Origin: a virus
Direction: 5' to 3' (one strand)
Length of the DNA: 64,000 nucleotides
IMG/VR virus record: IMGVR_UViG_3300045988_098461
Span: 20,546-84,545 of that record
Under the pieces are notes generated by a model. That model was not told where the DNA came from. It saw only the letters and a program-made list of their open reading frames with translations, and did not search any database. The position numbers were made by a program, and so were the translations under genes. This document shows, in pieces, positions 15,388 through 63,826 of this stretch (the stretch's first letter is position 1; every line of letters starts with the position of its first letter).

Positions 15388-15857
15388 TATTTATAATACT
15401 TTTTGAAATTTTCTTCGTTTGCGAAGTATTTTCCTGTAGTAGATGTTACTTCTTGCTTGAATTTTTTAACGCCATTAGCTAGTTTATTAAACTTATCTTT
15501 TGGCATAGCACTCTTAATAATAGATACGAATGCTTCGTGCGCTTTATCTGTTACATTCGGCTTTAATATGGCATTAAAAATGCTTCTATCATCGCTGAAA
15601 TTTATATTTCCAGAGATATTTTCTCCATGATTTATCGCACTCATAATTTTCGTTACATCGTACGTTGCATTTTTGAGGAGTTGATACAAATCTTGTTTAT
15701 CATATTCACTCAAATTGCTTATAGCACTATTTGGCGAGTTTGTCTTCAAGACTATATTTTCATTTGTCCCTCCCCCGATTGCGCTCTGCGCAAAGGTTCT
15801 GCTTGCGGCAGCATTTGCGCTGCTCACGGTTCTTGTACCGCCACTTGCCTTACTCAT
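15387..15857 (-). CDS. protein with conserved N-terminal MSKASGGTR leader (family member 2)
   Basis: N-terminus MSKASGGTRTVSSANAAASRT is nearly identical to that of 40752..41144. Confidence 0.55.
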   Translation of the reverse strand: MSKASGGTRTVSSANAAASRTFAQSAIGGGTNENIVLKTNSPNSAISNLSEYDKQDLYQLLKNATYDVTKIMSAINHGENISGNINFSDDRSIFNAILKPNVTDKAHEAFVSIIKSAMPKDKFNKLANGVKKFKQEVTSTTGKYFANEENFKKYYK

Positions 15858-29777: not shown

Positions 29778-30521
29778 ATGGAGTTAGATAATATTTACTT
29801 CGGAGATTGCATTAACCTTATGCGTGATATTCCTGATAAAAGCATAGATTTATGTGTTACGGATGCACCATATCTCCATAATAAATCGCCACTTAGTCCT
29901 ACGTATGATGGGAGTGAATGGAATCAGAAAAGTTCCTTTGGAAAATCGGAGCTTTATAAATATGGTGGTGATATGATGGGAGGGATGAGTTGTTTTGGCG
30001 AAGAAGAAATAGATAAGTTCCTTGATGCATTAAAGCCGAAAATGAAGATAATGAATGCTTATATGTTCTGTTCGGAAGAACAGGTACCGTATTATTGTAA
30101 CTGGGCTAATAAGAATGGCTTGATGTTTACAATACTCGTTTGGGAAAAGCCGTTATCTATCATTAACAAAAATCGTTTTTCGCAGAACCTGGAGTACATA
30201 GTACGAGTATATGATTACGGTACTGCTCTTAATCGGTTAAATAATAACTTGTATTATAATCGGGTAAAGAAAGAAAAACCGATTAACGGGAAAAGTAAGA
30301 ATCATCCAACAGAAAAACCTGTCTCAATTATGCAAGAGTTCGTTGAACTGAGCAGTAATGAGGGTGATGTGGTCTTGGATGCGTTCTGTGGCTCTGGTAC
30401 GCTTGCGATAGCGTGCATTAATACTAACAGACATTTCATTTGCTTTGAGAAGAATAAAAAATTCTTTGATATTGCTAAGAAACGGGTTAAAGAACGGAAG
30501 CAACAACAAACAATTTGGTAA
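29778..30521 (+). CDS. DNA methyltransferase (N6-adenine/N4-cytosine, beta class)
   Basis: Motif IV is TDAPY. It is followed later by HPTEKP and AdoMet motif I DAFCGSGT. Confidence 0.8.
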   Translation: MELDNIYFGDCINLMRDIPDKSIDLCVTDAPYLHNKSPLSPTYDGSEWNQKSSFGKSELYKYGGDMMGGMSCFGEEEIDKFLDALKPKMKIMNAYMFCSEEQVPYYCNWANKNGLMFTILVWEKPLSIINKNRFSQNLEYIVRVYDYGTALNRLNNNLYYNRVKKEKPINGKSKNHPTEKPVSIMQEFVELSSNEGDVVLDAFCGSGTLAIACINTNRHFICFEKNKKFFDIAKKRVKERKQQQTIW

Positions 30522-36731: not shown

Positions 36732-36763
36732 TTTGGTTATCTGAATATTTCTTCGTAAATTTG
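36732..36763 (+). promoter_or_regulatory. Bacteroidota-type promoter TTTG-N20-TAAATTTG
   Basis: TTTG at 36732-35 and TAAATTTG at 36756-63. Confidence 0.6.
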
Positions 36764-36796
36764 CGAATAATTAACATTAAAATAGGAGATACAGCT

Positions 36797-37585
36797 ATGA
36801 TAGGAGCAATTATAGGTGATATTGTAGGCTCTAAATATGAGTTTAATAACACATTTGATTATAACTTTAAACTATTTGACGAAGGTTGTAATTTTACAGA
36901 TGATACTATCTGTACAATAGCCGTAGCAGATGCTATTCTTAAAGAAGGTGGTGATAAAAAGCCGAATGTCGGAGATTATTGTATCTCGCTTCAATACTGG
37001 TGTCAGAAGTATCTAAACCCAATGGGTGGGTATGGCGCAAGCTTCGCAAAATGGGTTCGTAGCTCTAATCCACAGCCTTATGATAGTTTTGGAAATGGAG
37101 CAGCTATGAGAGTTAGTCCTGTGGGTTGGGCATTCAAAGAAAATTCTGATATCATTCATCAGGCAATGATGAGCGCAAAGGTTTCGCATAGCCATGTTGA
37201 AGGATTGATTGGTGCTATTGCGGTAGCAGATTGTGTACATGCTTTAAAAGCATATAAACAAAAAGATTTGATTAGGGTAATAGCAAAACAATATTATGGC
37301 TCTGATTGGAATAAGAATCTTGTACCAAGAGGTAGATGGGCAGAAACTTGCCAAGAGTGCGTTCCTCTTGCCTTTAGAATAGTCCTTGATAGTGATAGCT
37401 TCGAGGACGCAATCAGAAATGCTGTATCCTACGGCGGTGATAGCGATACGATGGGAGCAATCGTTGGTTCAATCGCTCAGCCACTCTTTGGTATTCCACA
37501 AGAAATGAAGGAAAAAGCATTGAACTATCTCCCTTTGGATATGAAGAATGTAGTAACTAAATTTATTGATAGATATGGTGAATAA
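36797..37585 (+). CDS. ADP-ribosylglycohydrolase (DraG/Tri1-like ARH)
   Basis: Start at MIGAIIGDIVGSKYEF after TAGGAGATAC (36783-92). Also carries ...GAAMRVSPVGW... and ...SYGGDSDTMGAIVGSIA..., typical of the ARH family. Confidence 0.8.
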   Translation: MIGAIIGDIVGSKYEFNNTFDYNFKLFDEGCNFTDDTICTIAVADAILKEGGDKKPNVGDYCISLQYWCQKYLNPMGGYGASFAKWVRSSNPQPYDSFGNGAAMRVSPVGWAFKENSDIIHQAMMSAKVSHSHVEGLIGAIAVADCVHALKAYKQKDLIRVIAKQYYGSDWNKNLVPRGRWAETCQECVPLAFRIVLDSDSFEDAIRNAVSYGGDSDTMGAIVGSIAQPLFGIPQEMKEKALNYLPLDMKNVVTKFIDRYGE

Positions 37586-41146: not shown

Positions 41147-42658
41147 TTATTCCTCCTCTTCTTCTTCATTGGAAACTGACTGTCTTCCACTTGCGGCACT
41201 ACCAAGTCCCGAAAGAGCTGCCTGCTGCGCCAACGCTTCTTCCTGTTCACTCTTCATTTCTTCCTCAACCTTATCAGGGTCATCATTGAGAGGGTTAAGC
41301 TCGATGGCACGGCGATTAGAGGTAGATTTCGCACCACCATTGGATGAAGTGATAAGTTGCAACATTTCAACATCATTCTTTGGTAGATATGGCTTGAAGA
41401 CTGGTTCAAAGTCAATCTGCTCAGCAACACTCTGGTCGATACCCTTTACGTAAACTCCCGTATTACAGATGCCGTTAGCTACGATATTCGAGCGGCGAGT
41501 AAACATTTCACCGAACATTTCTGTCTTCAAATCTGCTTTCATATAAGGAGCAGTGAACATCAAACGGATAGCCGCACCCGAGGTGTTGCTGCCCAAGGTT
41601 TTCATATTCTCAAAGCTGATATCGGCTGTTGAGGTGAATGAATAGATGATATTGAAGAGGTAAGCAATTTCACCCTTCACACTCTCAGGTGATTTATCCC
41701 ATGAAAGGACGTTCATACTTGCATCACTGCCACCTTGGAAGACTGTGCCTTGCTCGCCCTTCTCAGCGAAGCCCTCCAAACGACCTTTAATAAAGTACTT
41801 AGGCGTGCCGAAGTAGTCATTCGTATCACCCCAATTTGAGATACAAGTTTCCACTCTGTCAATAGCCCATTGAACATCTTCCCACTCAGCTTGGTCTTGT
41901 CTATAGTAAACGACAGGCACTTTGGTGAAGCCATGAGGTAGGGCAGAAATAAGCTTCCAACCTGCGCCATCAATATTAGTGTACTGATAGCACAATCTAT
42001 CTGTATATACATCAAAATGTAGCTCAGATTTTCCAAGCTCATCATATACATAGTACTCACGGGCGAAGCCGTCCATGATATGGAAATCGTTGAAATGAGG
42101 GTAGAGCTTATCGCCGTTTGAAGGTGAAAGCAACTGAACTCGGATTTCGCCTCGAAGCTTTCCCTCTGCGTCTGTTGGCATATACCATAACTCGGCGCAC
42201 TCACATTCCTTGAAGAGGGTACGGGCAAGTCGCTTATCGAAGTACTTCATCTTGTTGTCGTGATAGCAGTGCATGATGCCGTCATATAGCTTCTGCTGCT
42301 TATCGTCCATCTTCTTTATATCAACACCATGTGCCGTAGCTTTATAGGTAACGGCATTCATAAACAAGAAACCAACAGTAAGATTTGTGATTGACTTCTG
42401 AGCAGGGATAGCGATTCTTACTGGCTCAACTTTCTTATCCTTATAAATCGGTTTCTGTGTGATAGGGTCATACTGACCCGTAGGTACTTTGATTCGTTTC
42501 TTAGGACGGAAATCCTCATCAAAGATTTTATGCTTTGATGGATTCCATTGTTCTTCAAGCACACTCAGTGATGTCTTAAAGCCTTTCTTTCTTGCGGTCA
42601 ATACCGAGCGGACTGTGTTCGCATCTTGTATTGATACTATCTGTTCTATTGCTCTCAT
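41147..42658 (-). CDS. portal protein
   Basis: 503 aa between TerL and MuF, with an acidic C-terminal tail (NEEEEEE). Confidence 0.8.
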   Translation of the reverse strand: MRAIEQIVSIQDANTVRSVLTARKKGFKTSLSVLEEQWNPSKHKIFDEDFRPKKRIKVPTGQYDPITQKPIYKDKKVEPVRIAIPAQKSITNLTVGFLFMNAVTYKATAHGVDIKKMDDKQQKLYDGIMHCYHDNKMKYFDKRLARTLFKECECAELWYMPTDAEGKLRGEIRVQLLSPSNGDKLYPHFNDFHIMDGFAREYYVYDELGKSELHFDVYTDRLCYQYTNIDGAGWKLISALPHGFTKVPVVYYRQDQAEWEDVQWAIDRVETCISNWGDTNDYFGTPKYFIKGRLEGFAEKGEQGTVFQGGSDASMNVLSWDKSPESVKGEIAYLFNIIYSFTSTADISFENMKTLGSNTSGAAIRLMFTAPYMKADLKTEMFGEMFTRRSNIVANGICNTGVYVKGIDQSVAEQIDFEPVFKPYLPKNDVEMLQLITSSNGGAKSTSNRRAIELNPLNDDPDKVEEEMKSEQEEALAQQAALSGLGSAASGRQSVSNEEEEEE

Positions 42659-42965: not shown

Positions 42966-44156
42966 TTAACCCATCAGACCGAGAATGTCGGCGGCTTGCA
43001 TTCCGCTGCCATAATCGCCCAATAACTTCTCCATAACAACATATCGGCATGCATCTATAGCGTGATTATACATATCTATAGGCTCATTAAGCCACTTTCC
43101 TTCCTTATCTTGGCGATAGGTATAATTATTAAATTCCCTTCTTACATTTGTAGAGCGTTTTGTTATATGAATTGTGTATTCTTGCATCTTCATAATACTA
43201 GCTTGAATAGAACCTTTGAACTTCTTTACAGGTTTTATATCAATACCAGCATTATAGATTTCATCTATCAGACGAGGGTCGGCACTCTCTGATATTACCT
43301 CAATATTTTTTTTATCCTCTTTCAATACTCTGATAATATCAGAAGAAAGCATTTCTGTCTGATAGCATATTTCATCTATATAGATAATCTTTCCGTAGAT
43401 ATATACATCAATAATCGCTGTAGGGTCATTGGAGTAACCAAAGTCAATGGCTCTGTATCGGTGTCTGTTCGCTTGAATAGGAATATAATCATCAATAACT
43501 ACATTCTTAAAAATCAAGCCCTCAACCATAGAACGCAATCCCAAACCATAAATACGCCAAAGGCTCGGATTCTTCCATTTAAGGCTCTCAATCTCAGCGA
43601 TAACCTTTGGCTCGAGGAAAGGATTATCCTTATAGGTGGATATAAACCAATAAGTGCTTTTTTCCTCGTTTACCTGATTTATCCAATGGTCTTCTGAGAA
43701 GGAAGGGTTATAATCAAGGATAGAGAACTCCGTGGTACGCATCTGTAGCTGCTGCCATTCGATGAAAGAAAGCTCATTCGCCTCATTTACGAAAAGTATC
43801 TTACGCTTAGAACCACGCACCTTCTGCTCGTTATCGGTGGAGAAGAACTCAATCCAAGAGCCGTTAGGGAAAGTATAAACGAACTCCGATTTATTCATGC
43901 ACTTATCATCCCACCAACCAAAGTTGAGCATTATATCCTTGAAATCACGATAGACAGTTCGTTTAATGGAAGGCATACCAGCACGAATGATGGAAACGGT
44001 CGTTCCAGCATAATTGAAGCAAAGCATACAGAGGAACTGCACAACAGAATAGGTCTTCGCAGAGCGTGAGCTTCCTTGAAGAGAGCAAGTTGTGAACCCT
44101 GCTTCTTTCGCTGCCTTTACCCTCATGTAGTTCTTTGCTAAATATACGTGCGGCAT
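42966..44156 (-). CDS. terL: terminase large subunit
   Basis: 396 aa with a Walker-A-like GSSRSAKT and a C-terminal nuclease-like half. Sits directly upstream of the portal. Confidence 0.9.
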   Translation of the reverse strand: MPHVYLAKNYMRVKAAKEAGFTTCSLQGSSRSAKTYSVVQFLCMLCFNYAGTTVSIIRAGMPSIKRTVYRDFKDIMLNFGWWDDKCMNKSEFVYTFPNGSWIEFFSTDNEQKVRGSKRKILFVNEANELSFIEWQQLQMRTTEFSILDYNPSFSEDHWINQVNEEKSTYWFISTYKDNPFLEPKVIAEIESLKWKNPSLWRIYGLGLRSMVEGLIFKNVVIDDYIPIQANRHRYRAIDFGYSNDPTAIIDVYIYGKIIYIDEICYQTEMLSSDIIRVLKEDKKNIEVISESADPRLIDEIYNAGIDIKPVKKFKGSIQASIMKMQEYTIHITKRSTNVRREFNNYTYRQDKEGKWLNEPIDMYNHAIDACRYVVMEKLLGDYGSGMQAADILGLMG

Positions 44157-44179: not shown

Positions 44180-44689
44180 TTATTTCTTTATTTCATCAAC
44201 TGTAACTAAGGTGTCGTTGTGCGAGCCGCCATGTGCTACGATAAGAATCTCTTTACATACCGCTCCGTTACATTTTCCTATTCCTTGTGTATTCCAACCA
44301 CAAGAAATACAGATACCTTCATTCTTTAATATTCTTGCAATCTCCTTCTTACATAAAGACCAATATTTGGCATTAGAGACATTTATCTCCAATTTCTCTT
44401 TGCCAAAATCCTTATATAGCAAAGATGCTTGTGTTACACTATAAGGTGGGTCGTATAATACCATATCAGCAGAATTAGATTTCTGCCCTTGAAGGAACTT
44501 TAATGCGTCAAGGTGATACTGAGTATCGCAGTTCGGATTTAAGTCATTGCGAATTGTTCCGAGCTTGCAATCCTTTGCGAATGGGTCAATAATAACACCA
44601 CCTTTATTATATTTATCAAAAAGTTCTTTGATTGGCTTTATACCGAAAGTATCACCACTTGGCATAGCCCATTTCTTCTGTATTTCCAT
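44180..44689 (-). CDS. small DNA methyltransferase (DPPY motif)
   Basis: VIIDPFA (motif I-like) and VLYDPPYS (motif IV). Confidence 0.65.
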   Translation of the reverse strand: MEIQKKWAMPSGDTFGIKPIKELFDKYNKGGVIIDPFAKDCKLGTIRNDLNPNCDTQYHLDALKFLQGQKSNSADMVLYDPPYSVTQASLLYKDFGKEKLEINVSNAKYWSLCKKEIARILKNEGICISCGWNTQGIGKCNGAVCKEILIVAHGGSHNDTLVTVDEIKK

Positions 44690-44693
44690 ATAT

Positions 44694-45197
44694 TTATTCT
44701 CCTATATTTTTATCTGGCTCAGCATCCTTCTTTTCTTTCTCTTTCTGAATCTCAGCGAGAATCTTCTGATACTCTTCATTGTTGGTAACAACGTGTACTT
44801 GCAATGGGTCTTGCTTAATCTGCTCGCCCTTGCTCGTAAGGTCGATGCGTTGAATCTTTCCGTAGGCTCTATCAATAACTCTTTCGAGCACATCAAGCCC
44901 TTTCTTGTCAAGTATTCCCTTGGCAATAATGCGTTGCATCATCGGGCGTGACTTATCTGTCAACACCGCCTCCAATTCGGCTTGGGGCAGGGTCGCGATA
45001 TACAGAAAAGACTCCGCGATAATCTGAGAGGAAGGCACTTCGTAACCCTTCTCCTTCATTTCTTCGATGAACAATGACATCGTCTTAGGCTTTGGCGGTC
45101 TACCCTTCGGGTTGCCAACTCCACCTTTTTTAAACTTACCTTTTTCAAGGTTTGCAAGCTGTCTTTTACGCTTGCTTTCATCTCTTGATAATGGCAT
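44694..45197 (-). CDS. terS: terminase small subunit (tentative)
   Basis: 167 aa with a basic N-terminus (KRKRQLANLEKGKFKKGGVGNPKGRPPK), upstream of TerL. Confidence 0.55.
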   Translation of the reverse strand: MPLSRDESKRKRQLANLEKGKFKKGGVGNPKGRPPKPKTMSLFIEEMKEKGYEVPSSQIIAESFLYIATLPQAELEAVLTDKSRPMMQRIIAKGILDKKGLDVLERVIDRAYGKIQRIDLTSKGEQIKQDPLQVHVVTNNEEYQKILAEIQKEKEKKDAEPDKNIGE

Positions 45198-45238: not shown

Positions 45239-45538
45239 TTATTTAAGAAAAGCATCTTTATTCTCTTTTTCCTCTGCTGCCATTTCTCGGCACATTTTTA
45301 GTACATTAAAGTACTCTCCAAGATTGTTGTTATAGAGCAGCTTTGCTATCTGCTGTACAAAAGATGACTTACGTCCATCTTGTTGTAAGGTCACTATCTG
45401 GCTCGCTGGCATCATCAAGAACTGCTCCATGATTTCAACCTTTTCCTTAGAGGAAAGAAGCTTCTTGGTAGGAAGCAGAAAACCCACTTCCTCCAAGATT
45501 TTTGTTTTGACTGATTTAACCTTCATACTTATCACCAT
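45239..45538 (-). CDS. hypothetical protein
   Basis: 99-aa ORF. Start is uncertain because it overlaps the end of folE. Confidence 0.4.
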   Translation of the reverse strand: MVISMKVKSVKTKILEEVGFLLPTKKLLSSKEKVEIMEQFLMMPASQIVTLQQDGRKSSFVQQIAKLLYNNNLGEYFNVLKMCREMAAEEKENKDAFLK

Positions 45539-46118
45539 TTACGAGGTTCATAAACTCAGCTCTCACTTGTGGGTTATCTTTGAAAGCACCTTCAAGGTAA
45601 GAAGAGGTCATAATACCCTTCTTCTTTGCGCCTCTGAACTCTTTGCAAGAATGATGACCCTTCATCACGAGAGCAATACCAAGTGGTGGGTATTCGCTAC
45701 CGAGAGCATTTTTCAGCATATCTACGATGTCGTGTACCAATCGCTCCTGTATCTGTAAGCGAGCGGAGCAGTAATCAACTACACGACCAATCTTAGAGAT
45801 ACCGAGAATCTTTCCCTTTGGGTTCGGAATATATGCGAACCAATACTTACCCCAAAACCAAACACAATGATGCTCGCAGTTTGAATGGAAATCTCCTTGG
45901 TCGATAACCATGTTATCATAGACGATACCGTCATCATTGTTATCAAAGGTGGTAATCTTCGGCTTCTGTGAAGGGTCATAACCTCTGAATATTTCTTTCC
46001 ACATTCTAATAATGCGGTCGGGCGTTCCCTCTAAGCCCTTGCGGTTAGGGTCTTCACCGATATACTCCAAGAGCTCTTTGATATGCTTTTCTGCTTTTTC
46101 TTTTGTAATCTTAGCCAT
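45516..46118 (-). CDS. folE: GTP cyclohydrolase I
   Basis: Start moved to MAKITKE. Carries ...HSNCEHHCVWFWGKYWFAYIPN..ILGISKIGRVVDYCSARLQIQERL.... Confidence 0.85.
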   Translation of the reverse strand: MAKITKEKAEKHIKELLEYIGEDPNRKGLEGTPDRIIRMWKEIFRGYDPSQKPKITTFDNNDDGIVYDNMVIDQGDFHSNCEHHCVWFWGKYWFAYIPNPKGKILGISKIGRVVDYCSARLQIQERLVHDIVDMLKNALGSEYPPLGIALVMKGHHSCKEFRGAKKKGIMTSSYLEGAFKDNPQVRAEFMNLVNGDKYEG

Positions 46119-46122
46119 ATTA

Positions 46123-46335
46123 TTAACCTTTCCAATATTCTTTATAATCTTGTTTCTCCTCCTCATTAGGCTCATATACCTCATAAGAAGTACCGCATTG
46201 CATACAATGATAGTAATCCACTACGGAATCATCATCCTCGCTGCGGTCACCTGATGAATCCCAACAAAGTTTCCCACCGCAATAAAAGCAGATAGGACGA
46301 TACTTTGTCGGGGTTTTCTTTTTATTCTTGCTCAT
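46123..46335 (-). CDS. small zinc-ribbon protein
   Basis: CFYCGG...CMQCG. Confidence 0.5.
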   Translation of the reverse strand: MSKNKKKTPTKYRPICFYCGGKLCWDSSGDRSEDDDSVVDYYHCMQCGTSYEVYEPNEEEKQDYKEYWKG

Positions 46336-46347
46336 AGGCGAAATGAT

Positions 46348-46938
46348 TTATTTCACGTTGAGAATCTTCTGCTGCTGTAAAGAAAGTCGCCACTTAGGGT
46401 TAGCCTCTACGAAAGCAACAGTCTGTTTCAGAATCTCGGCATTCTTCTTTGCATCGCCCGTATCACAAGGTTGAACGTAGTAGTAATCTGCATCAATACC
46501 ACAATCGGTAATCTCGTGCTCACCATCAAAGACAACCTTCACCTCAGTAGCTATCTTTATGATAGGTTCTGCGCCCTTAACGAATAAGCACTTAGGAGAG
46601 CAAGTAACCCAGTTGATACCACCATGAATCTTGTGCGTTCCGTTGGTCTCCATAGCAATATAATAGCCCCAATTTTGGAGAAGGGTAGTAAGCTCCTCAT
46701 CCACCTGTAATGTAGGCTCACCGCCCGTAAAGACAACAAATTTACAATCAGGTGAGAGCAACTGAATCTTATTCAGAATATCAATAGCCCCCATTTCCTC
46801 ATACTTCTTAAAGTCAGTATCACAGAAAGGGCACTTCAAGTTACAACCCGAGAAGCGGACGAAGATAGCCGCTCTGCCTGCATGTCTTCCCTCACCTTGG
46901 ATAGAGTAGAAGATTTCGTTTACTTTATACTTAGCCAT
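46348..46938 (-). CDS. queE: 7-carboxy-7-deazaguanine synthase (radical SAM)
   Basis: YSIQGEGRHAGRAAIFVRFSGCNLKCPFCDTDF. Confidence 0.85.
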   Translation of the reverse strand: MAKYKVNEIFYSIQGEGRHAGRAAIFVRFSGCNLKCPFCDTDFKKYEEMGAIDILNKIQLLSPDCKFVVFTGGEPTLQVDEELTTLLQNWGYYIAMETNGTHKIHGGINWVTCSPKCLFVKGAEPIIKIATEVKVVFDGEHEITDCGIDADYYYVQPCDTGDAKKNAEILKQTVAFVEANPKWRLSLQQQKILNVK

Positions 46939-47297
46939 TAGAGAGCCTCCTTTCCGTCAATTTTATCATCGTCACAATAAACAGCGATATTGCCTTCACT
47001 CTCCTGTACCTGTGCCTTGTAGCACTCTATGAACTGAGCAACAATCCATTTGGCGATATTCTCAGCAGTAGGATTGAAAAACAAAAGCTCGTTGAGGTTG
47101 CCGTGGTCGAGGTAGCCGTGAATCTTCTGCTTAATATGCTTGAAGTCCATCACCATACCATCCTTGTTCAGCTTTTCAGCCTTGCAGTAGACAGTAATAA
47201 TCCAATTATGCCCATGAAGGTTGGCGCACTTGCTTTCATAAGAGAGATTCAGCTTATGACAAGCGGCAATCTCCATTCTTTTTGAAACGTAATACAT
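46938..47297 (-). CDS. queD: 6-carboxy-5,6,7,8-tetrahydropterin synthase
   Basis: ...ACHKL......LHGHNW.... Confidence 0.85.
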   Translation of the reverse strand: MYYVSKRMEIAACHKLNLSYESKCANLHGHNWIITVYCKAEKLNKDGMVMDFKHIKQKIHGYLDHGNLNELLFFNPTAENIAKWIVAQFIECYKAQVQESEGNIAVYCDDDKIDGKEAL

Positions 47298-47315
47298 AAT
47301 TTTCCTTTCTTTTAT

Positions 47316-47346
47316 TTTGTTATTTCAATTTTTATTCTTAATTTTG
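47316..47346 (+). promoter_or_regulatory. orphan Bacteroidota-type promoter TTTG-N19-TAATTTTG, antisense to the que operon
   Basis: TTTG at 47316-19 and TAATTTTG at 47339-46. Confidence 0.55.
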
Positions 47347-47352
47347 CGACCG

Positions 47353-47446
47353 AGAAGAATAAATCGGGTGGGTCAGTACACTGGCTGCTCGATTTCATGC
47401 TTATTCTTCAAAGGCAAAGAGGTGTACCTGCTTTGCTGTTTTTTAT
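47353..47446 (+). ncRNA. candidate ~95-nt structured sRNA with an intrinsic terminator
   Basis: A 9-bp stem GAAGAATAA(47354-62)/TTATTCTTC(47401-09) encloses inner helices. The terminator is GCAAAG-AGGT..ACCT-CTTTGC(47414-36) plus TGTTTTTTAT. No ORF. Confidence 0.45.
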
Positions 47447-47985
47447 CAAAGTTTATGGCGATGAACATTGCCTGATAAGCCAACAACAATAACTTCTTTT
47501 AAGTTACCTCTTTCATTTCCTTTTGCATGAGTGAGATACATAGAAATTTGGTCTTTGACATATTCCTTTGTCATAGCCTTGTTATTCTGTATGAGGATAG
47601 CAACCTCTGCCCCTTGCTTTGCAGCACTCTTCAATGCATTCTCTACCTTATAGGCACTCGCCGAGTTGATGGTTTTCATATCCATCACGGCGTGCTCTTT
47701 GAAGCCATCAGTCTTCTTCGCTCCCGTTATATACGACATTTCGCTCATCAAATATACACGATAACCCTTTTTGGCAAGAACTTCTGCGGCATACATTTCC
47801 TTATTGGTATTCGGGTCAGCAATCTTATTATGGTTGTTATGTACCACATAATAACCGCCGCTTTTATCGAAGTAGCTATCTTTATAGTTGCCCGTAGAGA
47901 CGATGGCTTGAAATTCTGATTCTCTCTTAGCCATCGTCTTAGGGTTACCCGAATAGTTTCGTGTACCTCCGCTTGCCTTACTCAT
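47446..47985 (-). CDS. protein with N-terminal MSKASGGTR leader (family member 3) and a possible PD-(D/E)xK-like C-terminal domain
   Basis: Start moved to the internal MSKASGGTRNY (47985), because the longer track ORF overlaps queC. ...KKTDGFKEHAVMDMKTI...QGAEVAILIQ... resembles restriction-endonuclease-fold toxin domains, but this is tentative. Confidence 0.5.
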   Translation of the reverse strand: MSKASGGTRNYSGNPKTMAKRESEFQAIVSTGNYKDSYFDKSGGYYVVHNNHNKIADPNTNKEMYAAEVLAKKGYRVYLMSEMSYITGAKKTDGFKEHAVMDMKTINSASAYKVENALKSAAKQGAEVAILIQNNKAMTKEYVKDQISMYLTHAKGNERGNLKEVIVVGLSGNVHRHKL

Positions 47986-48634
47986 CCTCGTATTCGGTTG
48001 GGTCTGAAATGCCTGCATCACGGAGAGCTTCCTTGCGTTCCATACAAGTACCACACTTACCGCAATGCTTCTCACCGCCCTTGTAGCAGCTCCAAGTTTC
48101 AGCGTAGTTAATGCCAAGCTCCTTGCCGTGGCGAGCAACATCAGTCTTCGTAATACTGGTATAAGGAGCATCAATGCTGATACCCTCGTAAGTACCATTC
48201 TTCATTGCCTCTGACATGGCATCAATGAAGCCCTTGCGGCAGTCTGGATAGATTGCGTGGTCGCCGAAATGGTTAGCAATAAGCACCTTCTTCAATCCAT
48301 TACTCTCTGCGATACCGCAAGCGATAGAGAGCATAATGCCGTTACGGAAAGGAACTACGGTTGATTTCATGTTTGCATCATCGTAATTACCTTCTGGGAT
48401 AGCTTCTGCTCCTTCGAGGAGAGAGGATTTGAAATAATCGTGAATAAAATTGAGTGGAATAACAATATGCTTGATACCAAGTCGCTCACAATGCAACTTA
48501 GCAAAAGGAATCTCCTTCTGATTGTGGTTAGAGCCATAATCAAAAGAAATAGCGAGAGCAATGTTCTCTTTCTTCTCATGCAGGAGAGTTACCGAGTCCA
48601 TACCTCCTGATACAATAATCAATGAATCTTTCAT
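47978..48634 (-). CDS. queC: 7-cyano-7-deazaguanine (preQ0) synthase
   Basis: IIVSGGMDS PP-loop and a C-terminal Cys cluster CYKGGEKHCGKCGTC. Confidence 0.9.
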   Translation of the reverse strand: MKDSLIIVSGGMDSVTLLHEKKENIALAISFDYGSNHNQKEIPFAKLHCERLGIKHIVIPLNFIHDYFKSSLLEGAEAIPEGNYDDANMKSTVVPFRNGIMLSIACGIAESNGLKKVLIANHFGDHAIYPDCRKGFIDAMSEAMKNGTYEGISIDAPYTSITKTDVARHGKELGINYAETWSCYKGGEKHCGKCGTCMERKEALRDAGISDPTEYEDE

Positions 48635-48662
48635 AACTAATTAAAATTTAAATATTTATCTT

Positions 48663-49523
48663 TTATAATCTTGCACGAGCGTACTTCATAAAGCGTACCC
48701 ACTCGCCGAAATTATGTGCAGCAACCAACTTTGAGCGAAGTTTCTTGCCCTCAGGTGCTTTGGTTTTATCCATAGTTCCGTTCTTGGCATTGAACTTATA
48801 TATAGAACCGCTCATATTGCCATAAAGCCAAGCTGTTGAATCCACAGAATCAAAGTGATAAGTATGCAATCCTCTGATATTTGTATATCCAAGAGCATGT
48901 ATCTTGCAGCCATATTTATGTGCTGTCTTTATGAACCAAGGAAATAACTTCTCATATTTATTGATAGGTATCTCTTTAGTCACGATGCCACCAATAGCCA
49001 CATAAGGGTAATTCTTGCACATTTCAACGAAATACTCTTTCCCTCGTGACTTATGCCAAACGGGGATAGGCTTACGTCCACTTAATCTTTCGAGCTTTTC
49101 ACGAAGTCTTTCAACCTCCTTGATACCAACAACTGAATCAATATCAAGCTCAAAGAAATTCTTTACGTTCCATTTCTTAATGAATGCAGCATATCCTTCT
49201 ACGTATTTATCGAAGTTAACTACACCTGCTCCCGACATAAATGTGAAAGCACCACTATCTAATAGGAAATTCTGAAAATTGCCTATCAATCGAGGAAACT
49301 CTTTATTATTCTGTAGATAATAGTAAGTTTCCAATATATTTAATCCTTCCCAATCGGCATCCTTGCCGTTCTTTACTGGGTGTTCACCTGCTAAAAAAAC
49401 TTCCATAGCCTTTTTATAAACATAGGGACGACTTAAAGTCCCTGCTATATATAATTCCATACTAACACTTTTCCAAAACTTACTAAGATTTCCAGTAAGC
49501 CCCCCCGCAAGATAGACTTCCAT
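48663..49523 (-). CDS. dpdA: DpdA-like DNA (tRNA-guanine-transglycosylase-fold) transglycosylase
   Basis: ...FLLDSGAFTFMSG... core and its position beside queC. Start is ambiguous because of three ME[VL][YF][LI]AG repeats. Confidence 0.6.
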   Translation of the reverse strand: MEVYLAGGLTGNLSKFWKSVSMELYIAGTLSRPYVYKKAMEVFLAGEHPVKNGKDADWEGLNILETYYYLQNNKEFPRLIGNFQNFLLDSGAFTFMSGAGVVNFDKYVEGYAAFIKKWNVKNFFELDIDSVVGIKEVERLREKLERLSGRKPIPVWHKSRGKEYFVEMCKNYPYVAIGGIVTKEIPINKYEKLFPWFIKTAHKYGCKIHALGYTNIRGLHTYHFDSVDSTAWLYGNMSGSIYKFNAKNGTMDKTKAPEGKKLRSKLVAAHNFGEWVRFMKYARARL

Positions 49524-49530
49524 ATCTCTA

Positions 49531-50202
49531 TTATTTTATTTCCACACCATCGTATTCGGAAACGGCAGACTTGATAATCTCCTTAATCTCATCTACCTTA
49601 TCTTCCAACTCTTGTGGAATATGGACGGAGAGCTTAATATCTTTAACTTTGCTCTCGGTATTTTGGGCATCCTCGAATAGCTCATCAATATCGGTATCAT
49701 CCTCATCGGTATTGAGAAAAGAGCAATCAACACCCCAATTCTGCAAATCATCGGTTTCCCATTCACCATTGGCAAGCTCATCCCAATCCCAATTACCTGC
49801 TTGCACGTTATCCTTGATAGCATACTCCTTGATTTTCTGAATTGGGGTATCGGTCTTCAAGACGAAACAAGGCAGCTTATCGAAGTTCGTATTTCCACCG
49901 ATGCGTAACTCGTTAGCCACTCTGAGGCGCATATTACCGCAGATGGTGACGTATGTACCATCCTCCAAGCCATAAACCATCAAAGGCTTGTACTCTAAGA
50001 GCTCTGGGCTATCGGCGAGTGATTTGACGAGCTTGTCGTGCTCGCTCTCCTTTAAGTAGCGAGGGTTCTTTGGAACGCCATCAATCTGCCCCTCATTATA
50101 GAGGAGCTTTGTAATGTCAATCATTTCACGAAACCCAAGCTTTACAAGAAGCTCATCCTTTGCGATGGATGGGTTCTGTGAGATTCTCTTTTCTCTTGCC
50201 AT
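49531..50202 (-). CDS. ParB N-terminal-domain (ParB-like nuclease/NTPase) protein, DpdB-like by context
   Basis: ...GVPKNPRYLKESEHDKLVKSL... and ...ICGNMRLRVANEL.... Confidence 0.65.
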   Translation of the reverse strand: MAREKRISQNPSIAKDELLVKLGFREMIDITKLLYNEGQIDGVPKNPRYLKESEHDKLVKSLADSPELLEYKPLMVYGLEDGTYVTICGNMRLRVANELRIGGNTNFDKLPCFVLKTDTPIQKIKEYAIKDNVQAGNWDWDELANGEWETDDLQNWGVDCSFLNTDEDDTDIDELFEDAQNTESKVKDIKLSVHIPQELEDKVDEIKEIIKSAVSEYDGVEIK

Positions 50203-50230
50203 AATTTTATTATTTAATAATTATTATTTG

Positions 50231-50238
50231 CAAAGTTA
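50231..50238 (-). promoter_or_regulatory. -7 box TAACTTTG for the ParB-dpdA-que operon
   Basis: Plus strand reads caaagtta, 29 nt upstream of the ATG at 50202. A CTATTAAAA motif lies just upstream. Confidence 0.4.
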
Positions 50239-50288
50239 CGGAGATTATTCGGGTTTTAATAGAAAATAATAGGTTGCGTGTAAACAAA

Positions 50289-50486
50289 TAAAAAAGCTAC
50301 CCATATAATGAGTAGCCTTTGAAGTTATCATAAAATATTATACCTATTATATATAAGAAAAGCAGCTACCTATCACAGGCGGCTGCTTATAGACTAATAA
50401 CTAACTATTATTTTCATTTAACCAAATCTTAACTAATACATATTGTTATGACACTTCAGAACCTATATTCCACAATTTCCGTTTTG
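50289..50486 (-). ncRNA. candidate 135-200-nt sRNA with two terminator hairpins
   Basis: Lies downstream of promoter 50493-50524. Hairpin AAGCAGC/GCTGCTT (50360-88) is followed by TTCTTATATAT, and hairpin GCTAC/GTAGC (50296-50316) by TTTTTTATTTG. Only trivial ORFs are present. Confidence 0.4.
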
Positions 50487-50492
50487 CTGATG

Positions 50493-50524
50493 CAAAGATA
50501 CAAAAGAAAGCGAGATACAGCAAA
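50493..50524 (-). promoter_or_regulatory. orphan Bacteroidota-type promoter TTTG-N20-TATCTTTG
   Basis: Plus strand reads caaagata at 50493-500 and caaa at 50521-24, with exactly 20 nt between the boxes. Confidence 0.55.
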
Positions 50525-50551
50525 TAAATGCCATATCTCGCATAAACAATC

Positions 50552-51322
50552 TTACTTTTCCTCAATCTGTTTAGAGACATTATCTGTTCGGAAATCCTCA
50601 ATCTGCTTGGAGAAAGGGGTGAGCTTATCAAGCTGCGCCTTAACAGAGAACTCTTCTCCGATAAAGGCAACACCTTCGTGAATCTTCTGCAAGGCGGCAA
50701 GCTGCTTCTTTGTAGTAACAACGGGGTTGATGTAGATGCAACCTCTATGGGTCTGGGCGAACCGCAGACACTCAGCACCGCCGCCGTAGATAACAAATAG
50801 CGGCTCTTTGCCCTCTGCCCAATCGCTTGCAATGGAATACTCAAAGGCGAGGTTATTCAGTCTATCCGAATATCCACGGGTAGCGAAGGCACGCCATCCA
50901 CGAGGTACGCCAATCATATTGAGGCGATAGAACTTCTGCGCAACGTTGAGGTCAACGAAGATACCGATACCCTTACCTTGCATACAACGGGCAATCCAGC
51001 GTTTCTTGTAGATAGCCTGCAAGCCGAAAGATACGGGCATTTCATTATATAGGGAGAAGTTCGGCTCAACGATAACGGCAGGGTGATGCTGCAATATCTT
51101 CTCAGGGTGCTCGTAGATAGCTGAGAAGCGGTAATCATCGGTATAGAAGTGCAAAGAGCCTTCACCATTGAGGTTGAAGGTTCTCTTCTGTTCGCCGAAG
51201 CAAAGGAAGGGTGACTGACACTCCTTTGCTTGCATATCAATATCGAGTGTCGGAATCTCTAGGTCATTGTCCGTTGGGAAGAGCTGGTCGGGCAGGGTAA
51301 GCTCATAATCTGTTCTTTTCAT
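50552..51322 (-). CDS. DUF4417-family protein
   Basis: ...SLHFYTDDYRFSAIYEHPEKIL....IVEPNFSLYNEMP...IYKKRWIARCMQ.KGI... matches the DUF4417 pattern. Confidence 0.6.
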   Translation of the reverse strand: MKRTDYELTLPDQLFPTDNDLEIPTLDIDMQAKECQSPFLCFGEQKRTFNLNGEGSLHFYTDDYRFSAIYEHPEKILQHHPAVIVEPNFSLYNEMPVSFGLQAIYKKRWIARCMQGKGIGIFVDLNVAQKFYRLNMIGVPRGWRAFATRGYSDRLNNLAFEYSIASDWAEGKEPLFVIYGGGAECLRFAQTHRGCIYINPVVTTKKQLAALQKIHEGVAFIGEEFSVKAQLDKLTPFSKQIEDFRTDNVSKQIEEK

Positions 51323-51636
51323 GCTTTGTTACTTTTTAAGAGTTCTACGATTTGGTTATATATAGATAAGGTGTACTTATCCTTTGACTGAACGTATTGC
51401 ATATACTTTCGTGCTTGGTTGATTACGTTTGCTCTGGTACGGCAGAGTAGGCGAGCCGAGCGGTCGGGGTGAATGCAATAATCACGGCTTATGAGGCAAT
51501 ATAATCCTCTAAGGGTGTTGAGCTTGACGGTCTTCACCGCAGAGCAAAGTTCCATGAACGTAACCTTGCCTACCTCACATACCGCTTGCATGATGCGGTC
51601 GGAGAGTTCGTACTGCTGATATTGATTGTATATCAT
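51319..51636 (-). CDS. small HTH protein (DnaA domain IV-like, tentative)
   Basis: 105 aa with ...LYCLISRDYCIHPDRSARLLCRTRANVINQARKY.... Confidence 0.4.
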   Translation of the reverse strand: MIYNQYQQYELSDRIMQAVCEVGKVTFMELCSAVKTVKLNTLRGLYCLISRDYCIHPDRSARLLCRTRANVINQARKYMQYVQSKDKYTLSIYNQIVELLKSNKA

Positions 51637-51678
51637 ACGCTATTACTTATTATTTGGTTATTAATAGAAAATATAATG

Positions 51679-51686
51679 CAAAGTTA
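51679..51686 (-). promoter_or_regulatory. -7 box TAACTTTG
   Basis: Plus strand reads caaagtta, 43 nt upstream of the ATG at 51636. Confidence 0.4.
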
Positions 51687-51714: not shown

Positions 51715-51742
51715 CTATTAATTATTTTAAATTTATTAATAG
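51715..51742. promoter_or_regulatory. palindrome CTATTAAT-N12-ATTAATAG (operator candidate)
   Basis: Lies between the divergent promoters at 51.7 kb. Confidence 0.35.
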
Positions 51743-51746
51743 AAAA

Positions 51747-59971: not shown

Positions 59972-61207
59972 ATGGAGAAACGAATAATTTTAGACGAACA
60001 AGATATGAATGAGTTTACAAAGATTTTCGCAAAGACAATAGAAGATGAAGCTATCAAGCAGATAGAAGTTCTATCCAATAGCGATGCTTACTCTGGTTGT
60101 GAAATAAGAATAATGCCAGATTGTCACGCAGGTAAAGGCTGTACTATTGGTACGGTGATAGAGCTGGACAAAAGAGTAGTTCCTAACACCGTAGGAGTAG
60201 ATATAGGTTGCGGAATGAAAGTCGTTAGACTTGGTAAAGTTAATATTAATCTACAGAAATTTGACGAAGCAGTCAATACGTTGATTCCATCTGGTTTCAA
60301 TATCAACGAAGAAGCTTCTGCATACATACATGGATTAGTTGACGGCAATATGTTTGGCAAATTCCGTGCTTGGGATTGTCTTGACAGCATGGAAATAGTA
60401 TATCGTTCTGTTGGAAGTCTTGGCGGTGGCAATCACTTTATTGAGTTAGATGCAAATGAAGAAGGAGAGAAGTTTCTTGTGATACATACAGGAAGTAGAA
60501 ACCTTGGTGTTAGGGTATGCAACTATTACCAAAAACTTGCCTACGAGTATTGTCGTAAGAAAATAGCCGATAAGTCGGAGGTTATTGCCAAGTTGAAAAG
60601 CGAAGGAAGAGAAAAGGAAATACAGAGTGCTATCAAGTTGTTAGGTACTAGAGATATTAGCAAGGAACTTTCTTACTTGGAGGGCGATTTGCTTGATGAT
60701 TACTTAAATGATATGCGTATAGTTCAGAAATATGCCGAGCATAATAGAAGAATTATAGCTAACAGACTCGTCAATGCTCTAGGTGTGGATATTGACCCAA
60801 ATTCAGACAAGCATTCTTTTACAACCATTCACAACTATATAGATACAGACAAGGGCATATTGCGAAAAGGAGCTATCAGTGCAAAAAAGGATGAGGTAGT
60901 CATTATCCCAATGAATATGCGTGATGGTTCTCTTATCTGCAAGGGAAAAGGTAACAAAGATTGGCTATGCTCTGCCCCACATGGAGCAGGTAGATTGATG
61001 TCTCGTACGCAAGCGAAGAAAGAGTTATCTATGGATTCTTACAAGAATGAAATGAATGGCATCTATTCTAGTTCTGTATGCGAAGAGACGATTGACGAAG
61101 CACCTATGGCATATAAATCAACAGAAGAGATTGTTGAGCTAATAAAACCTACGGTTGATGTGATAGATGTTATTAAACCAATTTACAACTTTAAAGCAAA
61201 ATTATAA
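59972..61207 (+). CDS. rtcB: RtcB-family RNA 3'-phosphate ligase
   Basis: MPDCHAGKGCTIG, GVDIGCGM, GGGNHFIE, HTGSRNLG, IHNYI and SAPHGAGR motifs. Confidence 0.9.
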   Translation: MEKRIILDEQDMNEFTKIFAKTIEDEAIKQIEVLSNSDAYSGCEIRIMPDCHAGKGCTIGTVIELDKRVVPNTVGVDIGCGMKVVRLGKVNINLQKFDEAVNTLIPSGFNINEEASAYIHGLVDGNMFGKFRAWDCLDSMEIVYRSVGSLGGGNHFIELDANEEGEKFLVIHTGSRNLGVRVCNYYQKLAYEYCRKKIADKSEVIAKLKSEGREKEIQSAIKLLGTRDISKELSYLEGDLLDDYLNDMRIVQKYAEHNRRIIANRLVNALGVDIDPNSDKHSFTTIHNYIDTDKGILRKGAISAKKDEVVIIPMNMRDGSLICKGKGNKDWLCSAPHGAGRLMSRTQAKKELSMDSYKNEMNGIYSSSVCEETIDEAPMAYKSTEEIVELIKPTVDVIDVIKPIYNFKAKL

Positions 61208-62628: not shown

Positions 62629-62662
62629 AAGAAAGGGTAGGGCGAAAGCTCTACCCCTTCTT
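62629..62662. terminator. hairpin between convergent genes (overlaps the integrase stop)
   Basis: AAGAAAGGGTAG-GGCGAAAGCT-CTACCCCTTCTT. Confidence 0.5.
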
Positions 62663-63826
62663 GTTATATAGAACATAATCAATAACCTTTCGATTGGCTT
62701 CATCAATCCGTTGTTGGTCTTTTCGCACATATATAGAGGTTATTCTATGGCTATTCTTATGCCCAAGGCAGTCTGCAATAATATCCATACTGATACCAAT
62801 CTCATAAGCAATAGTAGCAAAGGTATGTCTTGCCCAATAAGTAGTTACTTCGGGTATTCCTATACTTTTGCAGATTTTGCTAAGACATCTATTATTGGCT
62901 TGGTCAAAGCTTAGATACGATGCTTTTCTATCGAATTGCTTGATAAGATGCTCTTTCCCTCTATATCGTTCAATAATCTCCATAGCCTCAGGTTCTACCT
63001 TTATATTATATAGCGTTCCCGTTTTTGAGCGGCGATAGGAGATTCTGCCGTTTTCTATTTTTTCTAATTTCGATAGGTCTTTAACATTGATACCCATTAG
63101 ATAGAAGATAAGAAAGAACATATCACGATGTTTAGAACGGATAGGTGATAACTTTGCTTCATGCAATTTTCTTAACTGCTCAACAGTTAATGAGCGTTTC
63201 CTTGTTTCTTCTGATTTAATACTATACATATTAAAAACATATTCTTTAAGGACACCTTTTTTGCGAGCATAGTTTAAGATGGTTCGGATAATCCTTAATC
63301 TCATAGCAATGGTGTTTTTGCAATTTTTTATCTTTAGAAAATCAACGAAATCATCCAACCAGTCTATATCTATATCTTCAACCCTTAATGTATCATAATC
63401 ACAGAAATCTTTTATTCTGTTTTCTGCTGCGATATATATGCGTTTAGTTCCCTCACTTTCTTTCTTGGATAGAAATTCTGCCATCTGTGTTTTGAAAAGA
63501 TGATTCTCGTAATCGGTTTTATCTTCTTCGTTAGACAGATAAAGTGATAGCTTCTTATTAGAGAAGTAGCGCAGTTTGCCTTCTTCTTGCAATTGCACTA
63601 TCTTATCATTAAGAAGGGAAATCCTTTTCATAAGCTTCATATTGATAACTCTCTGTTCGGGTATTCCTTTCACCTTCTCATTCTTAGCATCCCATTCATC
63701 TTCTTTCAGCTCATAGCCTGTGGGAATATAAATGGCACTATCTTTCCTTGCCACTTTGAACTTCAAAGGGAATCTGCCGCTATTCAATCGCCTCCTTTTA
63801 TCCAACTTAATTGAAATCTTAATCAT
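62651..63826 (-). CDS. int: tyrosine recombinase / phage integrase
   Basis: 391 aa with ...YWARHTFAT... and ...LGHKNSHRITSIYV.... Has an N-terminal arm-binding-like domain of the Bacteroidota integrase type and AAGGAGATAC upstream. Confidence 0.9.
   Translation of the reverse strand: MIKISIKLDKRRRLNSGRFPLKFKVARKDSAIYIPTGYELKEDEWDAKNEKVKGIPEQRVINMKLMKRISLLNDKIVQLQEEGKLRYFSNKKLSLYLSNEEDKTDYENHLFKTQMAEFLSKKESEGTKRIYIAAENRIKDFCDYDTLRVEDIDIDWLDDFVDFLKIKNCKNTIAMRLRIIRTILNYARKKGVLKEYVFNMYSIKSEETRKRSLTVEQLRKLHEAKLSPIRSKHRDMFFLIFYLMGINVKDLSKLEKIENGRISYRRSKTGTLYNIKVEPEAMEIIERYRGKEHLIKQFDRKASYLSFDQANNRCLSKICKSIGIPEVTTYWARHTFATIAYEIGISMDIIADCLGHKNSHRITSIYVRKDQQRIDEANRKVIDYVLYNKKG

Follow-up and report, generated by a model that had tools for sequence, protein, structure and literature searches.

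The 64,000-nucleotide stretch of viral DNA analyzed here, referred to as the window, comprises positions 20,546 to 84,545 of IMG/VR record IMGVR_UViG_3300045988_098461 and contains a run of minus-strand genes, extending from 51636 down to 41147, in which a ParB-like gene, a gene for a DpdA-type DNA guanine transglycosylase and the genes for synthesis of 7-cyano-7-deazaguanine (preQ0) stand together. All genes named in an earlier note on this DNA, which was made from the sequence alone, were found where that note had placed them. The segment 45516-50202 encodes, in order, the ParB-like protein, DpdA, QueC, a 179-residue open reading frame (ORF), QueD, QueE, a zinc-ribbon protein and FolE, and is in all probability a 7-deazaguanine DNA-modification operon. 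Positions are those of the window, and features lie on the minus strand unless the plus strand is specified.

The full preQ0 gene set that had been claimed (folE, queD, queE and queC) is present, family models match all four products, and FolE and QueC pass their NCBIfam cutoffs. FolE (GTP cyclohydrolase I; 45516..46118) matched PF01227 at 2e-49 and NF006826 with 175.5 bits against a cutoff of 162; its frame is open to 46184, with the likely start (MAKITKEK) at 46118. QueC, the preQ0 synthase (47978..48634), matched PF06508 at 6e-57 and TIGR00364 with 175 bits (cutoff 150), and is a single-domain protein of 218 residues without a fused amidotransferase. QueD, a 6-carboxytetrahydropterin synthase (46938..47297), matched PF01242 (PTPS) at 8e-28 with 97 bits and TIGR03367 at 7e-25, slightly below the equivalog cutoff (87.3 vs. 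89.25). For QueE, the radical-SAM 7-carboxy-7-deazaguanine synthase (46348..46938), PF04055 (Radical_SAM) matched at 9e-12 and TIGR04508 at 1e-45; its top NCBIfam matches were all QueE models, TIGR04508 being the best, with a score below the equivalog cutoff. We found no QueF in a phmmer search of all ORFs of the window and no ArcS or Gat-type gene in Pfam scans of the ten largest remaining ORFs, the latter check not being exhaustive, which agrees with the earlier note's statement that queF, arcS and an amidotransferase-type gene are lacking. The reading of the cassette as preQ0 synthesis plus DpdA, with 2′-deoxy-7-cyano-7-deazaguanosine (dPreQ0) as the modified nucleoside, was upheld as the best prediction, and from the gene content we infer that the modified base is dPreQ0.

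The 286-residue DpdA (48663..49523) matched phrog_887, a family labeled 'queuine tRNA-ribosyltransferase', at 3e-54. Its homology to phage DpdA was confirmed further by tblastn, which found 94 phage records with DpdA, including Seuratvirus and other Queuovirinae, and by a hidden Markov model (HMM) of its clade, which matched Queuovirinae DpdAs at 1e-23 to 1e-26, gp87 of Arthrobacter phage Sonali at 3e-18 and gp2 of Mycobacterium phage Rosebush at 2e-6. The sequence LLDSGAFTFMSG, by which a DpdA-like transglycosylase had originally been recognized, occupies residues 87-98. Among 51 homologs D89 (LLDSGAF), D127 and D129 (ELDID), and D225 and D228 (FDSVDS) are invariant. The invariant aspartates would correspond to Asp102 (TDSGG) and Asp280 (FDC) of tRNA-guanine transglycosylase (TGT), with catalytic or substrate roles. 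The protein had no Pfam or NCBIfam match, including to TGT PF01702, and it has two cysteines (C169 and C206) and lacks the CxCxxC zinc motif, so that it does not qualify as a canonical TGT. A profile of 12 sequences found no relative in the PDB, and a single-sequence search was uninformative. The AlphaFold2 (AF2) model (pLDDT 78) predicts a TGT-like TIM barrel, the Foldseek matches of widest coverage being to Zymomonas mobilis TGT (TMq 0.40-0.51, probability 0.95-1.0). Directly downstream of dpdA, in the window as in most relatives, lie the genes for QueC, QueD, QueE and FolE.

Two features of DpdA genes were observed in passing. Residues 1-50 of the window protein, where model confidence is low, consist of short repeats that each begin with methionine (MEVYLAGG, MELYIAGT, MEVFLAGE); homologs hold from one to five or more copies, gene callers choose differing starts, and the long homologs P0085 and L124 (539-1876) carry N-terminal repeats rather than a ParB domain. 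We detected no DNA tandem repeat beneath the triple ME(V/L)(Y/F)(L/I)AG peptide repeat. In addition, some close relatives have a second dpdA paralog (266 residues, with the same catalytic motifs) right after the first, giving the order ParB-DpdA-DpdA′-QueC (L019 10810-11610 and L011 7264-8064; also L016, L024, L026, L028, L029, L031, L033, L040 and L052; L numbers denote loci of our sample). Such paired enzymes may differ in sequence specificity.

Upstream of dpdA, the ParB-like gene (49531..50202) ends with a stop codon 7 nucleotides before the dpdA start. Its product, a ParB/Srx-fold protein of 223 residues, matched phrog_17622 at 4e-38 and phrog_620 (ParB-like) at 5e-10. Pfam and NCBIfam gave no match and a single-sequence PDB search was uninformative; a profile of its relatives matched the PDB chains SbnI (6.6e-7) and ParB/Noc (about 2e-3). 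The earlier note held that a ParB-domain gene next to dpdA stands out for a phage, and our survey of 90 viral loci, several metagenome contigs and 69 loci of species-representative genomes leads to the opposite view, since this arrangement is the rule in a large DpdA lineage: when 164 loci were screened, dpdA was directly preceded by a ParB-like gene in 147 (134 non-identical pairs; DpdA identity 34-99%). Every viral locus having DNA upstream of dpdA shows an adjoining ParB-like homolog on the same strand (DpdA identity 52-99%), separated from dpdA by -4 to about +70 nucleotides, with frequent 4-nucleotide ATGA overlaps. ParB also adjoins dpdA on its upstream side in 58 of 66 genome loci (DpdA identity 34-97%), in Bacteroidota, Firmicutes, Synergistota, Saccharibacteria and others, and host taxa with the pair include Prevotella, Alistipes, Muribaculaceae, Clostridia, Faecalibacterium, Veillonella, Staphylococcus, Enterococcus and Synergistaceae. 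Among the eight genome exceptions, four have no upstream DNA, and L131, L135 and L167 have a mini-partner, an ORF of 68-79 residues that overlaps the dpdA start and consists of the tail and motif described below without a ParB domain. Because many loci hold ParB and DpdA without que genes, the pair is the conserved core of the system. The identity matrices of the two proteins are also strongly correlated (r=0.89 over the 134 non-identical pairs; 0 of 500 Mantel permutations as high). We conclude that DpdA and the ParB-like protein very likely function as partners.

What, then, does such a partner look like? In the alignment it consists of an NPR box, a P-motif (GGNMRxRA), a tryptophan-containing segment of the form DN...FG.WDW..LAN.W....L..WG, an acidic linker with the sequence DIDELFE, and a tail of ~40 residues. 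The arginine of GNMR is invariant in the partner alignment and about 131 of the 134 partners preserve the GxxR arginine (P-motif G[NH]xR), which suggests that nucleotide binding has been retained. In their C-terminal half, 116 of the 134 partners have an acidic-aromatic motif of the form [DE]x[FLMI]F, compared with 7.8% of shuffled sequences, and the motif (of the DIDELFE type) is found in none of 22 ParB fusion proteins. Furthermore, when phages with DpdAs of 98-100% identity are compared, residues 1-130 of their ParB-like proteins range from 63 to 100% identity and residues 131-223 from 86 to 100%. These patterns point to a modular protein, with an exchangeable ParB head and a tail linked to DpdA, in which docking would most plausibly take place at DIDELFE. 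A second partner type was also observed, of about 155-180 residues, in which a CPxCG zinc-ribbon end replaces the tail of the window type (L002 3018-3506, L001 7543-8028, L116, L139, L167 and others); it is dominant in Firmicutes-type loci, and two of its members (with GNGV and GNGI) lack the P-motif arginine.

Relatives of the ParB-like protein were collected by tblastn against phage records and by a search of cluster representatives, of which 3013 matched at E<1e-3. The closest are stand-alone phage ParB-like proteins and, among the long representatives tested, the ParB-N domains of N6_N4_Mtase fusions (41-49% identity). One stand-alone relative lies directly upstream of a P-loop/GNAT protein gene in Leptospira phage LE3 and another directly upstream of a ParB-Methyltransf_23 fusion gene in Bacteroides phage BS-TP3. 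The ParB-N6_N4_Mtase and ParB-Methyltransf_23 fusions share the NPR, GNMR and Trp-rich segments with the window protein, as well as the placing of ParB beside a DNA-modifying enzyme, whereas in the window that enzyme is a separate polypeptide and a transglycosylase, and the tail motif is present only in the DpdA-linked forms.

The cluster in the window belongs to a known kind, because its order matches that of Mycobacterium phage Rosebush (Bclasvirinae), in which gp1 is ParB-like, gp2 DpdA, gp3 QueC, gp4 QueD, gp5 QueE, gp6 FolE and gp7 terminase, followed by portal. In Rosebush DNA about 28% of G is dPreQ0 (PMC6884629). The order recurs in Arthrobacter phage Sonali, from a ParB protein, gp86 (PF02195, above the gathering score), and DpdA, gp87, through QueC, QueD, QueE and FolE (to gp91). 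In both phages the ParB-like gene overlaps dpdA and, as in the window, there is no amidotransferase or QueF, but they differ from the window in host phylum, in their distant DpdAs (E 2e-6 for Rosebush and 3e-18 for Sonali with the window-clade HMM) and in their ParB partners, which belong to PHROG 723 rather than 17622 and were missed by the window-type ParB HMM; the window, for its part, has extra inserted ORFs (the 179-residue ORF and the zinc ribbon). In a paper on mycobacteriophage CRB2, the ORF ahead of dpdA drew the remark that it 'could encode a dpdB homolog' (PMC6392294). That remark, Rosebush gp1-gp2 and Sonali gp86-gp87 being already known, the arrangement in the window cannot be regarded as exceptional. 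In the literature searched, the principal papers on 7-deazaguanines in phages are silent on ParB, and we found no functional test of the partner. The DpdA1 clusters of Queuovirinae (Escherichia phages CAjan and 9g, Enterobacter phage EC151, Vibrio phage pVco-14) have homologous DpdAs (about 25-27% identity; phrog_887) and the same preQ0 genes, but have no ParB beside dpdA and adjoin DNA polymerase genes.

The ParB-like protein had also been proposed to be DpdB-like. Bacterial DpdA needs the ParB-fold ATPase DpdB, whose P-motif arginine is required (PMC10164549), and the Dpd system of Salmonella Montevideo resembles the window in joining a TGT-family DNA transglycosylase for preQ0 to a ParB-fold partner. 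Nevertheless, we found no support for DpdB or DndB membership of the ParB-like protein in PADLOC, NCBIfam or Pfam, nor any Dpd or DndB match for the window proteins in these collections. At 223 residues, the window partner has GGNMR in place of the DGQQR of DpdB and lacks the SspE-like helical C-terminal domain (DpdB as described in PMC10164549), and the window has no DpdC or restriction module, its role being phage anti-restriction as opposed to host defense in Dpd. The protein is thus not an ortholog of DpdB. By analogy, it may well work like DpdB, as a helper of a DNA transglycosylase that depends on nucleoside triphosphate (NTP), from a different ParB/Srx branch.

A gene for a stand-alone DUF4417 protein of 256 residues (50552..51322; PF14386 at 3e-32, 111.9 bits, cutoff 28.9) lies upstream of the ParB-like gene, across a spacer of 350 nucleotides, and its start is overlapped by a 105-residue ORF (51319..51636) that precedes it and has no match in Pfam, NCBIfam or PHROG. 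The promoter-like element TAACTTTGCA occurs upstream of the 105-residue ORF (51677..51686) and again 27 nucleotides upstream of the ParB-like start codon (50229..50238); these are its only two copies in the window, where 0.28 would be expected. The consensus of the Bacteroidetes -7 promoter element is TAnnTTTG, which TAACTTTGCA fits; a fixed-spacing pattern for this motif gave no match, and a sigma-70 promoter scan was uninformative (18 sites vs. 20.5 expected). Two terminator-like hairpins, each of 13 pairs with a T-run, lie just past the DUF4417 stop codon (50510..50541) and within the spacer (50292..50320). Because of the terminators and the separate promoter-like site, DUF4417 and the 105-residue ORF apparently form a transcription unit of their own. 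These dividing signals, like the 105- and 179-residue ORFs, were absent from the earlier note. An 11-mer, TTTTCTATTAA, is present three times in the window (50256-50266, 51661-51671 and 51736-51746; 0.25 expected), each time in one of the promoter regions that precede the ParB-like gene and the 105-residue ORF, and may be a shared operator.

The distribution of DUF4417 likewise argues against its having been, as was suggested, a partner in the DpdA system. In close relatives it lies -1.7 to -3.7 kb from dpdA or downstream of folE (L045, L046), and it is absent within 10 kb of dpdA in all viral loci with DpdA identities of 52-64% and in 62 of 66 genome loci; two of the four genome loci that have it encode ParB-DUF4417 fusions. 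Homologs of the 105-residue ORF (43-57% identity) are directly upstream of stand-alone DUF4417 in L096 and L097, with a small ORF likewise placed in L098; in these three loci the module adjoins integrases or early genes, and in L097 and L098 there is no DpdA within 7 kb. Fusions such as P0378 and the 'nuclease' of Bacteroides phage Versailles indicate that a ParB domain of its own normally comes with DUF4417, and a preprint reports that ParB-DUF4417 pairing is enriched in phages. Like the window genes, the fusions (phrog_940) are found upstream of terminase, their DUF4417 is 36-43% identical to that of the window and their ParB half is related; the window DUF4417 differs from them in standing alone, with the 105-residue ORF ahead of it and terminators before the ParB-like gene. 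We conclude that DUF4417 and the 105-residue ORF are an independent neighboring module. As there is a single ParB-like gene in the window, it is possible that the stand-alone DUF4417 borrows the ParB-like protein in trans. The AF2 model of DUF4417 (pLDDT 80.8) gave no significant PDB match, the best having an E-value of 0.24, and a PDB sequence search was uninformative; in BFVD it had two unnamed significant matches and non-significant matches to TGT. The idea that DUF4417 is a distant relative of the DpdA/TGT TIM barrel was rejected (Foldseek best E 0.24, TM at most 0.36; hhalign against DpdA, probability 0.2).

Taken as a whole, we think it probable that the locus is a preQ0/DpdA operon upstream of terminase with a dedicated ParB-like partner. 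In the mechanism we propose, FolE, QueD, QueE and QueC would convert GTP to preQ0, which a DpdA with a zinc-less, TGT-like TIM barrel would exchange for guanine in the double-stranded DNA of the phage, and the resulting dPreQ0 would shield that DNA from host restriction enzymes. The ParB-like protein would be a dedicated partner, co-inherited with this lineage of DpdA, whose N-terminal ParB/Srx domain may bind nucleotide triphosphate and DNA and whose C-terminal tail, with DIDELFE, may dock on DpdA; it would thereby load or activate the transglycosylase on DNA, the job that for bacterial DpdA is done by the unrelated ParB-fold ATPase DpdB. By ancestry it would be identical with the ParB-N module that is found fused to DNA methyltransferases in phages. 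We put this specific loader mechanism forward tentatively and with more doubt than conviction, and both a physical ParB-DpdA interaction and a dependence on nucleotide triphosphate are predictions. A broader and rather unlikely extension is that the small ParB-like proteins serve DNA-modifying enzymes of phages in general as an exchangeable 'DNA-loading' subunit, a nucleotide-gated sliding ParB-N clamp to which DIDELFE recruits DpdA for processive base exchange across the genome and which, as a fused or adjacent module, also serves methylases and DUF4417. If it were true, DUF4417 would be an undescribed DNA-modifying or DNA-processing enzyme, and the swaps of ParB N-domains between phages that are otherwise identical would reflect selection on DNA loading or evasion of host sensing.

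Several observations weigh against the interpretation of the operon and of its partner. The base may be dADG (2′-deoxy-7-amido-7-deazaguanosine) or another derivative, and the ORFs of 179, 70 and 99 residues in the operon could change the base. Pantoea phage MED16 presumably has the same core gene set. Its DNA is described as dADG-modified in a published account (PMC8306585). As to the enzyme, the Foldseek E-values of the DpdA model were no better than about 1e-2. As to the partner, no ParB was found at the dpdA genes of Queuovirinae (EC151, ECP2304, pVco-14), nor at that of BcepGomr, so that DpdA lineages are both ParB-linked and ParB-free; since, in addition, phage DpdA has been reported to put preQ0 into DNA with a partner going unmentioned (Hutinet 2019, PMC6884629), a partner must be dispensable in principle. 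Adjacency by itself would also yield some ParB-DpdA correlation, and simple physical adjacency could explain the linkage of the tail to DpdA as well as the correlation of identities. Moreover, there was no ParB-DpdA fusion among the best 150 ParB relatives, and in Rosebush and phiFN37 the partner does not show the motif in its strict Phe-Phe form.

Could the ParB-like protein instead act as an autoregulator that controls transcription of the modification operon, much as DndB does for dnd, and not as a catalytic partner? It is the product of the first gene of the operon, ParB-fold DndB has been reported as the repressor of the dnd operon (bioRxiv 10.1101/2025.10.10.680097), and the three copies of TTTTCTATTAA, being restricted to the promoter regions of the ParB-like gene and the 105-residue ORF, could be an operator. 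We consider this improbable, however, because Pfam, NCBIfam and PHROG scans revealed no helix-turn-helix domain in the ParB-like protein and its nearest ParB-domain relatives are fused to enzymes, mainly DNA methylases, and not to DNA-binding regulatory domains. The stop-start overlaps with dpdA across phyla, and the persistence of the tail motif in mini-partners that have no ParB domain, argue rather for a stoichiometric partner.

A similarly improbable alternative is that the ParB-like and DUF4417 proteins are the halves of a split ParB-DUF4417 enzyme, whose adjacency to dpdA is incidental to an accessory hot spot upstream of terminase. Each of the two proteins matches one half of the ParB+DUF4417 fusion profile phrog_940 (the DUF4417 protein its C-terminal part at 5e-35), the fusion protein P0378 is 43% identical to each of them, the gene next to dpdA is the sole ParB-like gene in the window, and related ParB-like genes lie beside other enzymes just upstream of terminase in LE3, BS-TP3 and Versailles. 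Yet well over 100 loci have the ParB-DpdA pair with no DUF4417 within 10 kb, the pair is also found away from terminase in Sonali and phiFN37, and stand-alone DUF4417 genes are accompanied by the 105-residue ORF rather than by a ParB gene. Within the window, the DUF4417 and ParB-like genes are parted by the two terminator-like hairpins and by a promoter-like site of the latter's own, and the ParB-like protein matches phrog_17622 (4e-38) much better than the N-terminal part of phrog_940 (1e-12). Least probable of all is a role in packaging, partition or cleavage (as a pac-site binder, a prophage partition protein or a ParB-type nuclease), which the position upstream of the terminase genes and the automatic annotation of such proteins as 'ParB-like partition protein' or 'nuclease' might suggest, since no ParA gene, ParB helix-turn-helix or dimerization domain was detected at the locus, the protein tracks dpdA and not terminase across hosts, with many genome loci having no terminase nearby, and among the forms of the protein it is those linked to DpdA that specifically carry the tail motif. 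A dedicated partner of DpdA thus continues to be our preferred explanation of the ParB-like gene.

The 179-residue accessory ORF (47446..47985; N-terminus MSKASGGTR), which matched phrog_36422 at 1e-18 and, weakly, CdiA_C (E 0.0017) and PADLOC PD-T4-6 (E 1e-4), occupies a slot between queC and queD that is polymorphic, with alleles of 26% identity in near-identical phages and no gene in distant relatives, and it does not count among the conserved pathway genes. The 70-residue zinc-ribbon ORF (46123..46335; CxxC...CxxC), noticed earlier among the pathway genes, does exist there, has a weak match to phrog_10675 and is lineage-specific, being found in close relatives only. The slot between queC and queD is an insertion hot spot (L005 12268-13173; L084 5366-6025); by eye, one relative has QueD fused to a Vsr/DUF559 endonuclease-like tail, and Alistipes-type relatives have a YhhQ-like (preQ0 transporter) membrane protein. 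The N-terminus of the 179-residue ORF defines a family of leaders (MSKASGGTR, MSKSSGGTR, MAKNSGSTR, MVKNSGGTR) attached to unrelated C-terminal parts, with copies at 47446-47985 and 15387-15857 in the window and in relatives (L010 8706-9176; L024 6205-6714 and 6719-7171; L045 8343-8789 and 8792-9109); the slots that they fill near the modification operon vary, and one copy is placed among structural genes. This shared leader may be a signal that targets injected accessory proteins to the capsid or marks them for processing. A related prophage in the isolate Prevotella sp. tc2-28 (L096, 8568-9041) has ParB and DpdA (45% and 41% identical to the window proteins), followed by QueF and QueC, and for that relative the presence of QueF therefore predicts 2′-deoxy-7-aminomethyl-7-deazaguanosine (dPreQ1) rather than dPreQ0.

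Downstream of FolE are a 99-residue ORF, a putative small terminase subunit, a DNA methyltransferase of 169 residues, the large terminase and portal. The putative small terminase (44694..45197) was assigned by position and is 40% identical to the gene product that precedes TerL in L054, itself a weak match to DUF5681 in Pfam. The large terminase (42966..44156) is 64% identical to an L054 protein with Terminase_3 and Terminase_6N Pfam matches, and the portal protein (41147..42658) is 50% identical to one with an SPP1_portal match. The small methyltransferase between the two terminase genes (44180..44689; DPPY motif; phrog_11619 at 7e-39) is accessory, its presence varying among close relatives. 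Elsewhere in the window we observed a further methyltransferase (N6_N4 methylase, 29778-30521, plus strand, PF01555 at 1e-26), an RtcB RNA ligase (59972-61207, plus strand, PF01139 at 5e-63) and an ADP-ribosylglycohydrolase (36761-37585, plus strand, PF03747 at 1.5e-32), the latter two of which may be counter-defense genes. The window also encodes a tyrosine integrase (62651-63826), there are more than 40 near-identical IMG/VR contigs of 40-100 kb, and a DpdA 97% identical to that of the window is encoded on a 124-kb contig of a Prevotella metagenome-assembled genome. The phage is temperate and common and belongs to Prevotella-type Bacteroidales, the host probably being Prevotella.

We conclude that the locus adds a common lineage of human-gut Prevotella-type phages to the users of 7-deazaguanines for anti-restriction, a protection already known from phages. 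The gene cluster itself is ordinary; what has been little discussed, and is testable, is the near-universal ParB partner with its candidate docking motif. In the phage DpdA papers we searched, DpdA is given as the inserting enzyme and a phage partner is not discussed. Both the putative docking motif and the arginine of the P-motif lend themselves to simple mutants. If the partner should prove to be required, it would explain how these DpdA enzymes reach DNA and would provide a mechanistic link between phage DpdA and the bacterial DpdA-DpdB pair, while also suggesting a function for the currently unexplained ParB-N domains that are fused to many phage methylases.

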